Origin: Candidatus Aminicenantales bacterium
GTDB lineage: Bacteria; Acidobacteriota; Aminicenantia; Aminicenantales; UBA4085
NCBI GenBank assembly: GCA_049515535.1
Contig: JBEKTZ010000006.1
Coordinates: 186,001 to 212,704 of the forward strand
DNA: 26,704 nucleotides
Direction of reading: 5' to 3'
Position numbers and translations under genes: made by a program. The notes under the pieces were generated by a model, which made no database searches, was not told the origin of the DNA, and saw nothing but the letters and a program-made list of their open reading frames with translations. How positions within the stretch are numbered: position 1 is the stretch's first letter; each line of letters starts with the position of its first letter. Positions 14,062 through 22,614 of the stretch are shown here, piece after piece.

Positions 14062-14505
14062 ATGTTCAAAGAGTTCAAGGAATTCGCGAGCAAAGGCAAT
14101 GTCATGGACCTGGCCGTCGGCGTCATCATCGGCGTGGCCTTCGGCAAGATCGTGTCCTCTTTCATCAACGACATCGTCATGCCGCCCATCGGCCGCCTGC
14201 TCGGCAAGGTCGATTTCTCCAACCTGTATATCAACTTGTCCGGGAAACCTTTCGGATCCCTGGCGGAAGCTAGAAGCGCCGGGGCCGCGACGCTGAATTA
14301 CGGCCTTTTCATCAACACGGTCATCGATTTTCTGATCATCGCCCTGGTCATATTCATGATGGTGAAATGGGTGAACAAGCTCCGCCGCAAACCCCTCGAA
14401 GCCCCGGCCGTCCCGACGACCAAGGAATGTCCATTCTGCTGTTCTCTCGTCCAGATCAGGGCCGTTCGCTGCCCGAATTGCACATCTGAACTCAAAGGTA
14501 AGTGA
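14062..14505 (+). CDS. mscL: Large-conductance mechanosensitive channel with C-terminal Cys-rich (Zn-ribbon-like) tail
   Basis: '[30 protein letters not shown]', '[15 protein letters not shown]'. Tail '[10 protein letters not shown]…RCPNCTSEL'. Confidence 0.96.
14327..14388 (+). repeat. 62-bp inverted repeat, copy 1 (inside mscL TM2 region)
   Basis: ATTTTCTGATCATCGCCCTGGTCATATTCATGATGGTGAAATGGGTGAACAAGCTCCGCCGC is the exact reverse complement of 16258-16319. Confidence 0.95.
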
Positions 14506-14675: not shown

Positions 14676-15980
14676 TCAATTCTTCTTCCCATTCTTGGCG
14701 TAGGCGTTGATGTCGAGAAAGCCATGGCCCGATAAATTGAAGAGGATGACTTTTTCTTTTCCTTCTTTTTTCGCCTGAAGCGCTTCATCGATCGCGGCCG
14801 CGACGGCATGGGAGGACTCGGGCGCCGGAAGGATCCCTTCGGCCTTGAAAAACGTCAGACCCGCTTCAAAGATCTTGTCCTGCGAATAGGCCCTCGGTTC
14901 GATCATGCCAAGCGACGCCAGGTGACTGACCAGCGGCGCCATCCCATGGTAGCGGAGACCGCCGGCATGGATCGGCAGCGGCACGAAATCCTTCCCGAGC
15001 GTGTACATATAGAGCAGCGGCGTCAGACCCGCCGTGTCGCCATGGTCGTATTTCAATTCGCCTTTCGTGAGAGAGGCGCAAGCTTCAGGTTCGACCGCGA
15101 TAAACCGGATTTTTTGTCCTTCTTTCAAGTTTTTGCGGACGAAGGGAAAGGCGATCCCGCTGAAATTCGACCCGCCTCCGACGCAGCCGATGACGATGTC
15201 CGGATGGGCGCCCTGAGCCGCCATCTGCTTTTCAGCTTCTTGGCCGATGACGGTCTGGTGCATGAGAACGGCGTCAAGAACGGAACCGAGGGAATATTTC
15301 GTCGCCCGGCTTTTTAGGGCCAGCTCCAAGGCTTCGGAAATGGCGATGCCCAGGCTGCCGGGATGATCGGCATCCCGACCGTAGAACCGTGCTCCGAATT
15401 CCGTCTTCGGACTGGGGCTTTCCTCGACCGTGGCGCCGAACATCTCCATGAGGATACGGCGGCCGGGCTTCTGCCGGAAACTGACCCGAACCATGAAGAC
15501 TTTCACGTTGACTCCGAAAATCGCTCCGGCGTGGGCTAGGGCCGAGCCCCATTGGCCGGCTCCGGTCTCGGTCGTCAGGGTTTCAATGTCTTCTTGGGCG
15601 GCGAGGTAGGCTTGCATCAAGGCCGTGTTACTTTTATGGCTTCCCATGGGACCGACGCCTTCATATTTGTAGAAAACGTGGGCCGGAGTGTCCAGGGTTT
15701 TTCTCAAGCCCGAGGCATAGATCAGGGGAGTCGGTCTGTAAAGGGCGTATTGCTCAAGGACCTTTTCCGGAATCGGGACGAACCGTTCCAGGCTTCCTTC
15801 TTGAGCGATGAACCCTTTGGAAAAGACGGGCTCCAGATCCTGAGGCTGGAGCGGATGTTTCGTTCCCGGATGAAGCGGAGGCCTGGGAAGGGAAGCCAAG
15901 TCCGCCTTGATATTGTAAAAATGAGAGGGCAAAGCATTGGCGTCTCGCGCCGAAAAACGTTTTATCGAATTTGTATTCAT
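14676..15980 (-). CDS. trpB2: Tryptophan synthase beta chain type 2 (TrpB2, stand-alone)
   Basis: 'YRPTPL', 'YKYEGVGPMGSHKSNTA', 'TTETGAGQWGSAL', 'GSLGIAISEA', 'IHAGGLRYHG', 'PAPESSHA', 'NLSGHG'. RBS AAAGGAG before ATG 15980. No trpA adjacent. Confidence 0.93.
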   Translation of the reverse strand: MNTNSIKRFSARDANALPSHFYNIKADLASLPRPPLHPGTKHPLQPQDLEPVFSKGFIAQEGSLERFVPIPEKVLEQYALYRPTPLIYASGLRKTLDTPAHVFYKYEGVGPMGSHKSNTALMQAYLAAQEDIETLTTETGAGQWGSALAHAGAIFGVNVKVFMVRVSFRQKPGRRILMEMFGATVEESPSPKTEFGARFYGRDADHPGSLGIAISEALELALKSRATKYSLGSVLDAVLMHQTVIGQEAEKQMAAQGAHPDIVIGCVGGGSNFSGIAFPFVRKNLKEGQKIRFIAVEPEACASLTKGELKYDHGDTAGLTPLLYMYTLGKDFVPLPIHAGGLRYHGMAPLVSHLASLGMIEPRAYSQDKIFEAGLTFFKAEGILPAPESSHAVAAAIDEALQAKKEGKEKVILFNLSGHGFLDINAYAKNGKKN

Positions 15981-16025
15981 GGTGATCTCCTTTTGTGGCT
16001 CTTGAAAGGGCAAAACAATTTCTTA

Positions 16026-16048
16026 CCTCCAAGGACCGGCCTTAGAGG
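16026..16048 (-). terminator. Attenuator-like hairpin in the trpB2 leader
   Basis: Minus strand CCUCUAAGG-ccggu-CCUUGGAGG (9 bp, one G-U), followed by UAAGAAAUUGUUUU (imperfect U-tract). Confidence 0.45.
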
Positions 16049-16072
16049 GAATAGGGGAGTCGGGGGACGGGG

Positions 16073-16162
16073 TTATCGGGCGGCGGTACCCGCCCACCAG
16101 AACCAGGAGGAAACGACACGGGAAGCGCCGCTCTTATTGATGAAGCTTCTCGTATCGTCCAT
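16073..16162 (-). CDS. Putative Trp leader (attenuator) peptide, 29 aa: MDDTRSFINKSGASRVVSSWFWWAGTAAR
   Basis: Three Trp codons in four (16105-16094). Lies between a consensus promoter and trpB2; stop codon is 92 nt upstream of the trpB2 ATG. Confidence 0.8.
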   Translation of the reverse strand: MDDTRSFINKSGASRVVSSWFWWAGTAAR

Positions 16163-16172
16163 GATGCGCGGA

Positions 16173-16201
16173 ATGATAAGAAAAGATCGCGCGCGTGTCA
16201 A
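16173..16201 (-). promoter_or_regulatory. Sigma70 promoter of the leader peptide-trpB2 unit
   Basis: Minus strand TTGACA (16201-16196), 17 nt, TATCAT (16178-16173), with an A7 tract upstream. Leader ATG lies only 10 nt after the -10 box. Confidence 0.75.
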
Positions 16202-16257: not shown

Positions 16258-16319
16258 GCGGCGGAGCTTGTTCACCCATTTCACCATCATGAATATGACC
16301 AGGGCGATGATCAGAAAAT
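16258..16319 (-). repeat. 62-bp inverted repeat, copy 2 (intergenic duplicate of an mscL segment)
   Basis: Perfect reverse complement of 14327-14388. Reads [20 protein letters not shown] on the minus strand, with an in-frame TAA just upstream. Confidence 0.95.
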
Positions 16320-21906: not shown

Positions 21907-22024
21907 ATAAAAGGGGGGAAGAGATCCCCTCTAGACATTCCGGATCTCACGTCCGGCTCAGAGGGTCTCAAGAGAAGAGTCGCGCTCAAAGGCTGGTTTC
22001 CGTTCGACGATAATGATAATATTT

Positions 22025-22614
22025 GAAGCCGATGATCCGCGCATCCGAATTAAAAAAAGGAGAGGCCGTCAAGATCGACGGAGATCCTTGCATCGTCGAG
22101 TCCATCACCGTCCAGACTCCGGGAGCGCGCGGGGCCGTGACGCTGTACAAGGTCCGATTCCGCAATGCCCTGACCAAACGCAAGACGGACCAGACGTTCC
22201 GCGGCGACGACGTCTTGGACGAAGCGGACATGGCCCGCCGTCCGGTTCAAATTTTGTACGGCGACGCCGCGGGTTTCACGTTCATGGATCTCGAGGACTA
22301 CAGCCAATTCACTCTGACCAAGGACGACCTCGAAAATGAATGGCTCTACCTGACCGAAGGGCAGGAAGGATTGTTGGCCCTCATTGCGGACGGCCGGGTC
22401 ATCGGCCTCGAGCTGCCGCTCCTCGTCCCCTTGAAGATCGTGGAGACCAGGCTGTCAATGAAGGGCGGCTCGGTGACGGCGCGAACGAAGCCGGCCGTGT
22501 TATCCACGGGTTTGGTCATCCAGGTTCCCGAATATCTATCGACCGGGGAAGTCGTTCGGGTGGACACACGTTCCGGATTGTATGTGTCGAAAGCGTAATT
22601 ATCGAAGCCGATGA
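22025..22614 (+). repeat. 11-bp direct repeat GAAGCCGATGA flanking efpL (22025-22035 and 22604-22614)
   Basis: Both copies are directly visible, each preceded by a TAAT-containing AT-rich stretch. Confidence 0.7.
22032..22598 (+). CDS. yeiP: Elongation factor P-like protein EfpL/YeiP
   Basis: 'MIRASELKKG', loop 'TPGARGAVTLYKVRF' (EfpL-type PxARG, not EF-P KPGKG), 'TARTKPAVLSTGLVIQVPEYL', 'YVSKA'. Confidence 0.88.
   Translation: MIRASELKKGEAVKIDGDPCIVESITVQTPGARGAVTLYKVRFRNALTKRKTDQTFRGDDVLDEADMARRPVQILYGDAAGFTFMDLEDYSQFTLTKDDLENEWLYLTEGQEGLLALIADGRVIGLELPLLVPLKIVETRLSMKGGSVTARTKPAVLSTGLVIQVPEYLSTGEVVRVDTRSGLYVSKA

Follow-up and report, generated by a model that had tools for sequence, protein, structure and literature searches.

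The window analyzed here is a 26,704-nt stretch of a contig from a Candidatus Aminicenantales bacterium. On its minus strand lies trpB2 (14676..15980), which encodes a stand-alone type-2 tryptophan synthase beta chain of 434 aa. The product scores above the cut-offs of the TrpB2-type models (594 vs 519 for TIGR01415; 641 vs 366 for PRK12391) and below that of the TrpB1 model (TIGR00263, 154 vs 392). Judged by entry name and score, its nearest solved relatives are TrpB2 chains of the Sulfolobus type (6hul, 4qys and 6hte), with which it shares aligned HKxNT and ETGAGQWG stretches. Since the genes next to trpB2 vary among relatives, the gene is likely to be monocistronic or nearly so.

An earlier note, made from the letters of this DNA alone, had described a promoter, a 29-aa open reading frame (ORF) containing W-F-W-W, two hairpins and a ribosome-binding site upstream of trpB2. 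We found each of them where it had been placed, all on the minus strand. The promoter is of the sigma-70 type (16173..16201), with the hexamers TTGACA (16201-16196) and TATCAT (16178-16173) separated by a 17-nt spacer, and transcription is predicted to start at about 16166-16164. It matches the consensus at 11 of 12 positions and ranks first among three sites in 3.5 kb, where shuffled sequences would be expected to give 1.3. The leader ORF (16073..16162) would be translated into 29 aa, MDDTRSFINKSGASRVVSSWFWWAGTAAR, ending in W-F-W-W-A-G-T-A-A-R before the stop codon. The candidate sensor codons W-F-W-W occupy 16094..16105; in the long ORFs of the same genome, three Trp residues within four codons occur at 1.2e-5 per residue. 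A 6-bp hairpin (GGGCGG-6 nt-CCGCCC, 16078..16095, -12.5 kcal/mol) covers the last Trp codon, and a 9-bp hairpin follows (16026..16048, -13.0 kcal/mol) before the Shine-Dalgarno (SD) sequence of trpB2 (15987..15992). The second hairpin is lineage-variable, has no U-run at the base of its tail, and drew no call in a terminator scan. Neither the window nor 12 other loci gave an Rfam match that reached the gathering score.

Our analysis added features that the earlier note had not listed. The leader ATG lies 10 nt past the -10 hexamer and 2-5 nt from the expected transcription start, with no SD ahead of it. Judging from this promoter spacing, the start codon would sit at or near the 5' end of the transcript, that is, the leader would be (near-)leaderless. 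Long-ORF starts in the host genome peak 6-9 nt past strong promoters (22 for 227 promoters). This makes leaderless translation plausible in the host, and it seems to be common in the lineage. In addition, pyrimidine tracts lie on both sides of the 6-bp hairpin. One is directly 5' of the Trp pair (16100..16123) and is a candidate first half of a rut site. The other, C-rich, G-poor and weakly structured, extends 3' of the stop codon (16044..16072), grades into a U/C run, and is a candidate for both the second rut half and a pause or release zone.

Two side observations concern the surroundings. Immediately 5' of the trpB2 promoter, 62 bp of mscL coding sequence recur as an exact inverted copy (window 16258-16319 and 14327-14388), and the trpB2 unit is flanked by this 62-bp inverted repeat, with its copies 1.9 kb apart. 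In the other 29 trpB2 loci compared below, mscL does not adjoin trpB2; the repeat would represent either a recent rearrangement or an assembly artefact. Elsewhere in the window, positions 22023-22598 encode an EF-P-like protein, EfpL/YeiP, which passes PRK04542.

Tryptophan supply in the host

The earlier note had proposed looking for trpA and trpB1 in the genome, which is 94% complete: neither was found, and TrpE, TrpC, TrpD and TrpR were not found there either. Rho is present, as is one tRNA-Trp, and two genes belong to the tryptophanase/tyrosine-phenol-lyase family, over the subfamily cut-off only. The genome holds three TrpB2 matches, namely the window gene, a paralogue of about 48-49% and a copy on a 1.5-kb contig. 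The ~49% paralogue has no Trp leader. The short contig (G000:C30:1-1458) carries a second leader and trpB2 that, over 1458 nt, show a single-nucleotide difference from the corresponding locus in the genome of another family (L028). This copy is probably a binning contaminant and, because of the single difference, it was not counted as independent.

As the host lacks recognizable trpA, trpB1, trpC, trpD and trpE, trpB2 would serve Trp supply via indole salvage. The earlier note had also argued that this gene serves Trp supply, and that part agrees with the finding of no other Trp-synthesis gene in the genome. Its contrast with a role in indole salvage does not stand, since the two are the same thing here and not alternatives. 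TrpB2 homologues are described as making Trp from indole at sub-micromolar KM and as rescuing a trpA mutant through cross-feeding (PMC11535334), and O-phosphoserine has been reported as a TrpB2 co-substrate (PMC11917138), with serine as the other substrate that homologues are reported to use. TrpA is present in 8 of 61 relatives; among the 30 leader-bearing genomes described below, 27 have no trpA and three have it. This places a stand-alone TrpB2 under a Trp sensor in a lineage mostly without trpA, and provides regulatory evidence on a long-debated enzyme, whose task in these bacteria would thus be the conversion of external indole to Trp. As apparent Trp auxotrophs they may subsist through cross-feeding with indole, and tight control of trpB2 would be expected to restrain futile cycling between TrpB2 and the host's tryptophanase-family enzymes.

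Conservation and spread of the Trp leader

The earlier note had proposed a Trp-codon leader ahead of this stand-alone trpB2. From 61 genomes we took the 30 TrpB2 loci that ranked highest on protein similarity alone, the window being one of the 30. The promoter and the Trp-codon hairpin were present in all 30 (the window and 29 relatives), which bears out the proposal. The promoter reads TTGAC(A/T/G)-16/17-TANNNT and lies at the same place in every locus. The leader starts 6-10 nt past the -10 hexamer in 28 of the 30, and an SD ahead of this start was found in none of them. An in-frame start is present in 29 loci; the exception (L007:1384-1475) has its Trp codons out of frame via a CT repeat when compared with its congener L011, which would mean either a broken sensor or an assembly slip. 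Among the 29 in-frame leaders the last Trp is always kept and the preceding one is kept in 28, L023 having Cys-Trp instead of the Trp pair. The peptides range from 26 to 47 aa and have in common only the Trp codons and the residues dictated by the hairpin. Since the peptide is otherwise free to vary, it does not behave as an arrest peptide.

Beyond these loci, the leader motif was found in 114 of 251 genomes of the class (Ca. Aminicenantes) vs 3 for the reversed control. It occurs at 119 places in the class, and the 40 that were inspected comprised 30 before TrpB2, two before trpE and eight chance matches. A scan of the whole GTDB returned 107 matches: 62 lie before TrpB2, 57 of these with promoter and in-frame start, two before trpE, one before a distant TrpB2, and 42 have no promoter-linked leader. 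The named records bearing the element are mostly Ca. Aminicenantes, and some carry other automatic labels. Because the relatives are not independent, and because loci taken by the motif are circular evidence, these counts describe spread and not significance.

The element also precedes the anthranilate synthase I gene (trpE) at four loci (L054, L128/L160, L162 and L147, the last in a W-S-W form), and distant TrpB2 genes (52-55% identity; L150 and L157) bear it as well. The ~48% TrpB2 paralogue group served as a negative control, with no promoter-linked Trp leader in 20 of 20 loci inspected or in the host. Since the same element heads trpE operons, it is expected to be on when Trp is short, and we carry this polarity over to trpB2. 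The earlier note had expected induction at low Trp, and the trpE loci imply the same direction. We consider it very probable that the leader senses Trp; its translation and its polarity are what we infer from sequence.

Related designs were found before other genes. At L143:9380-9570 (minus strand), a leaderless F-Y-F-W leader with the same pyrimidine tracts and a hairpin of different stem precedes the DAHP synthase gene that heads an aro-trp cluster, and it is possibly a multi-aromatic sensor of the same design. In the same order, one trpE is preceded by a leaderless leader that contains Y-Y-Y-Y-W-W-Y and has a classical terminator (L142:7240-7470, minus strand). We inspected 19 of the 21 TrpB2 matches in the other classes of the phylum; 4 of the 19 (L193, L203, L204 and L212) have a WWW leader followed by a textbook hairpin-U terminator. 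This indicates that the Trp leaders of trpB2 arose in more than one form, among which that of the Aminicenantes class appears to be the unusual one. At another of these loci (L207), the gene directly upstream of trpB2 ends in a helix-turn-helix-like stretch, which we take to recall TrpR.

A promoter-anchored scan of the host's own genome for other amino-acid leaders gave seven candidates, of which only the two trpB2 leaders were convincing. The genome also contains a repeat of ~110 nt, seen at G000:C2:174171-174330 (L233) and at some 20 further places (21 BLAST hits within the genome). It combines a TTGAC-17-TATNNT promoter with a conserved 5' leader ending before an SD, had no Rfam match in three copies, and is possibly a regulon-wide promoter/leader element.

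The conserved hairpin, its flanking tracts and the proposed role of Rho

The 6-bp hairpin is the sole consensus helix in the 30-locus alignment. Five of its pairs are invariant, one changes from G-C to G-U in two loci, and a further G-U occurs in L211. The earlier note had suggested searching relatives for a conserved Trp-rich ORF and for covarying stems: the Trp codons are conserved (28-29 of 29 leaders), but the stem has no two-sided change, and a hairpin this close to invariant cannot be proved by covariation. It persists in the 7 of 99 leaders whose stop codon lies within the loop, and in the four loci with an extra Arg codon behind the Trp pair, which argues that it is selected as RNA. 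The stop codon ranges from within the loop to 11 nt beyond the hairpin, with the hairpin and both tracts retained.

The tracts themselves are biased in composition. At silent (four-fold degenerate third) positions of the eight codons 5' of the Trp pair, 83% of the nucleotides are pyrimidines, compared with control values of 56% in the preceding part of the leader and 59% in trpB2. In the post-stop tract, whatever the GC level, C exceeds G in 98 of 99 leaders and reaches twice the number of G or more in 96 of them; the corresponding counts in 32 control windows from 16 paralogue loci are 14 and 7. The YC density of the window's two tracts was matched by none of 20,000 random genome samples. Both tracts are therefore selected at the RNA level, and their conserved composition is what a rut site interrupted by a short hairpin would be expected to show. 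Sequence resembling the tail of an intrinsic terminator is scarce: none of 68 leaders has a run of four U within 8 nt of the conserved hairpin, only 1 of 99 has five U of eight directly after it, 23 of 68 have no run of four U within 45 nt, and the U-richest window begins 21 +/- 7 nt after the hairpin (99 leaders).

We hypothesize, with confidence slightly short of even, that the element is a leaderless attenuator which senses charged tRNA-Trp and works through Rho rather than through an intrinsic terminator. In this model, transcription would begin at or just 5' of the leader AUG. The G-rich Trp/Ala codons would fold into the small hairpin, leaving the pyrimidine tract on either side single-stranded as a split rut site. 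When Trp is plentiful, the ribosome would cross the 29 codons and depart, making ~130 nt of bare RNA accessible to Rho, which would free the polymerase near the U/C-rich stretch 20-30 nt beyond the hairpin, ahead of trpB2. When Trp is short, the ribosome would stall on the Trp codons and mask the first tract and the hairpin; too little free RNA would be left for Rho, and trpB2 would be transcribed. TrpB2 would then turn scavenged indole into Trp.

Several points temper this model. Rho was found in 60 of 61 genomes, and as it is near-universal here, its presence does not discriminate between mechanisms. The C-rich, G-poor tract may look like a rut site, but it looks equally like a partner for any G-rich arm. 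Moreover, in known cases a ribosome stalled upstream of a rut site often promotes Rho termination, as described for polarity in Trp-starved Chlamydia (PMC7755916); for the model to hold, the 30-40 nt of the downstream tract would have to be insufficient for Rho on their own. A push on the polymerase at the U-run by a ribosome sitting at the stop codon was also considered and rejected. The U-rich window tracks the hairpin better than the stop, its distances being 17, 22 and 21 nt from the hairpin and 27, 20 and 12 nt from the stop across stop classes that are small groups (7, 88 and 4).

More tentatively still, the same reading may hold class-wide: a terminator-less attenuation in which the leaderless ORF carries a Trp-codon hairpin that splits the Rho-loading site, and stalling blocks Rho directly. 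We hold with the same reserve that the design would then be portable, with trpB2 and trpE under its control and an aromatic-sensing analogue of it ahead of DAHP synthase, and, again at that level of confidence, that it would replace the classical terminator used on trpB2 in the sister classes. If the Rho step is true, this compact (~150 nt) amino-acid sensor would be invisible to terminator-based searches for attenuators.

The same tracts could instead control translation. The pre-Trp (or post-stop) tract would pair with the SD of trpB2, a Trp-stalled ribosome would free it, and Rho would act only later, as polarity. This follows the logic of the mycobacterial polycysteine leaderless ORFs (10.1101/834739), and folding predicts such pairing of the pre-Trp tract in the window and in roughly a third of the relatives. 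The best fold of the window pairs this tract with both SD and start codon, and masking the Trp codons lifts the predicted accessibility of the SD there from 0.33 to 0.46-0.47. Across 57 leaders, sequence 5' of the Trp pair accounts on average for 31% of the SD pairing. However, over these same leaders (57 foldable of 68) mean accessibility moves only from 0.27 with the ribosome at the stop to 0.31 with the ribosome at Trp, because the downstream tract takes over the SD. The gain is above 0.2 in 6 of the 57 and the loss above 0.2 in 3. Several loci (L002, L004, L005 and L014) have no SD-complementary run 5' of the Trp pair, and the distance from leader stop to trpB2 start varies from 54 to 159 nt. 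Thus, we regard this explanation as unlikely.

Another explanation, which we consider improbable, keeps intrinsic termination but makes it depend on a two-state switch. The G-rich arm (Trp-Trp-Ala codons) would have two alternative partners, the near CCGCCC and a C-rich stretch immediately 5' of the U-run; the distal pairing would form an unusual intrinsic terminator after the ribosome has passed, and stalling would block the arm, with no antiterminator involved. The duplex of the arm with the distal stretch has a mean energy of -13.3 kcal/mol, an improvement of about 1 kcal/mol over dinucleotide shuffles, and beats the shuffle mean in 51 of 68 leaders, in a test where the search pattern shortened the arm in the four Arg-insert loci; the gain is only marginal in the protein-selected loci (21 of 30, p=0.06). 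A complement to the arm followed directly by a U-run is present in 7 of 30 loci vs 1.2 expected, and 8 of 68 leaders have a composite hairpin ending at a U-rich tail. Taken alone, though, the complement is at the level set by composition (15 vs 14.7 expected in the 30; 30 vs 34.4 in the 68). Against the switch stand also the 23 leaders mentioned above without a nearby U-run, the tract of the window, which ends in C/U and not U, and the internal loop of 15-20 nt that the composite stem would require.

A different mechanism altogether (termination that depends on a pause or is assisted by a protein, access of an RNase, re-initiation), or else a conserved small peptide without regulatory function, is very unlikely. 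The near-invariance of the 12 stem bases could mean recognition by a protein and not pairing alone, but the peptide is free outside the Trp codons, the element is linked strictly to Trp-pathway genes, and TrpR was not found in the host.

The description in the earlier note implied that the 16048-16026 hairpin acts as a classical terminator, which would make the leader an attenuator of the trpL type. The tandem Trp codons, with a hairpin starting within them, fit this scheme; some stable downstream fold is present in 45 of 99 leaders, and in 19 of 68 the 3' arm can pair further downstream with an energy of -8 kcal/mol or lower. Yet 39 of 99 have no stable fold there, the hairpin has no adjacent U-run, a separate downstream hairpin with a U-rich tail occurs in only 2 of 68, most leaders have no antiterminator partner, and the true classical attenuators of the phylum (the trpE leader at L142 and the four WWW leaders) are plainly different. 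As a family mechanism, this scheme appears largely refuted, and we give it very little weight. Finally, a TnaC-like design, in which excess free Trp would arrest the ribosome at the stop codon, shield the downstream tract and induce trpB2, is scarcely tenable: the rut-like tract does start right after the stop, as in tnaC, and the host has its two tryptophanase-family genes, but the element precedes trpE at four loci and its analogue precedes DAHP synthase, both of which should be off at Trp excess, and both the peptide 5' of the Trp pair and the stop position vary.

Comparison with known systems

The earlier note had presented ribosome-mediated attenuation acting directly on trpB2 as something not known to be described. 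This overstated its novelty, given the WWW leaders with classical terminators in the other classes and a control of trpB2 by TrpY that is said to be in print. Karr et al. reportedly described this TrpY control in Methanothermobacter in 2008. It likewise places trpB2 under a Trp-pathway regulator, but that regulator is an archaeal DNA-binding repressor and is not ribosome-mediated. Lopatovskaya, Seliverstov and Lyubetsky (2010) reportedly list trpB among the predicted targets in their comparative attenuation survey. Our literature search, mainly of openly available papers, returned no description of the present element.

Known uORF-Rho systems share the central idea. In Bordetella cruR, E. coli tnaC, speFL and Salmonella mgtL/corL, a short leader ORF is present and the position of the ribosome is proposed to decide the access of Rho. 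In cruR a stalled ribosome shields a rut site inside the uORF, and in tnaC and speFL the shielded rut site lies beside the uORF (PMC12360218). These systems sense their ligand via an arrest peptide or RNA refolding, whereas the trpB2 leader would use hungry Trp codons. It differs from them further in its predicted leaderless ORF, its biosynthetic target and the proposed splitting of the rut site by the sensor-codon hairpin. Among the uORF-Rho cases considered from that review, none is a biosynthetic attenuator of this kind, save a possible contribution of Rho at hisL (PMC12360218). The mycobacterial polycysteine ORFs are leaderless uORFs, as the trpB2 leader is predicted to be, and likewise have a run of end-product codons near the 3' end and no classical terminator, but their sensor codons pair with the downstream SD (10.1101/834739); in the trpB2 leader they form a local invariant hairpin, and SD pairing appears not to be conserved. 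By analogy, we would place the nearest published logic in cruR and the nearest architecture in the mycobacterial leaders.

Classical trpL leaders (E. coli; Corynebacterium and Streptomyces, PMC1262725; Bacteroid-trp, RF01692) have tandem Trp codons with the first hairpin starting there, and the logic of being on at low charged tRNA-Trp would be common to both. Unlike them, the trpB2 leader has no 2:3 antiterminator, no 3:4 terminator with U-tract and no Rfam match. The 'trpB2A' attenuator of C. diphtheriae belongs to an operon that includes trpA (PMC1262725). Chlamydia trachomatis trpRBA is similar in physiology, with no de novo Trp synthesis and indole-to-Trp salvage under Trp control; however, it relies on TrpB1/TrpA, on TrpR and on the WWW motif of YtgR in trans, and its trpL is described as doubtful (PMC7755916). 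Set beside these systems, the trpB2 leader appears, on the evidence of its sequence, to be a real and conserved form of leader-peptide attenuation that is new in its terminator-less layout.
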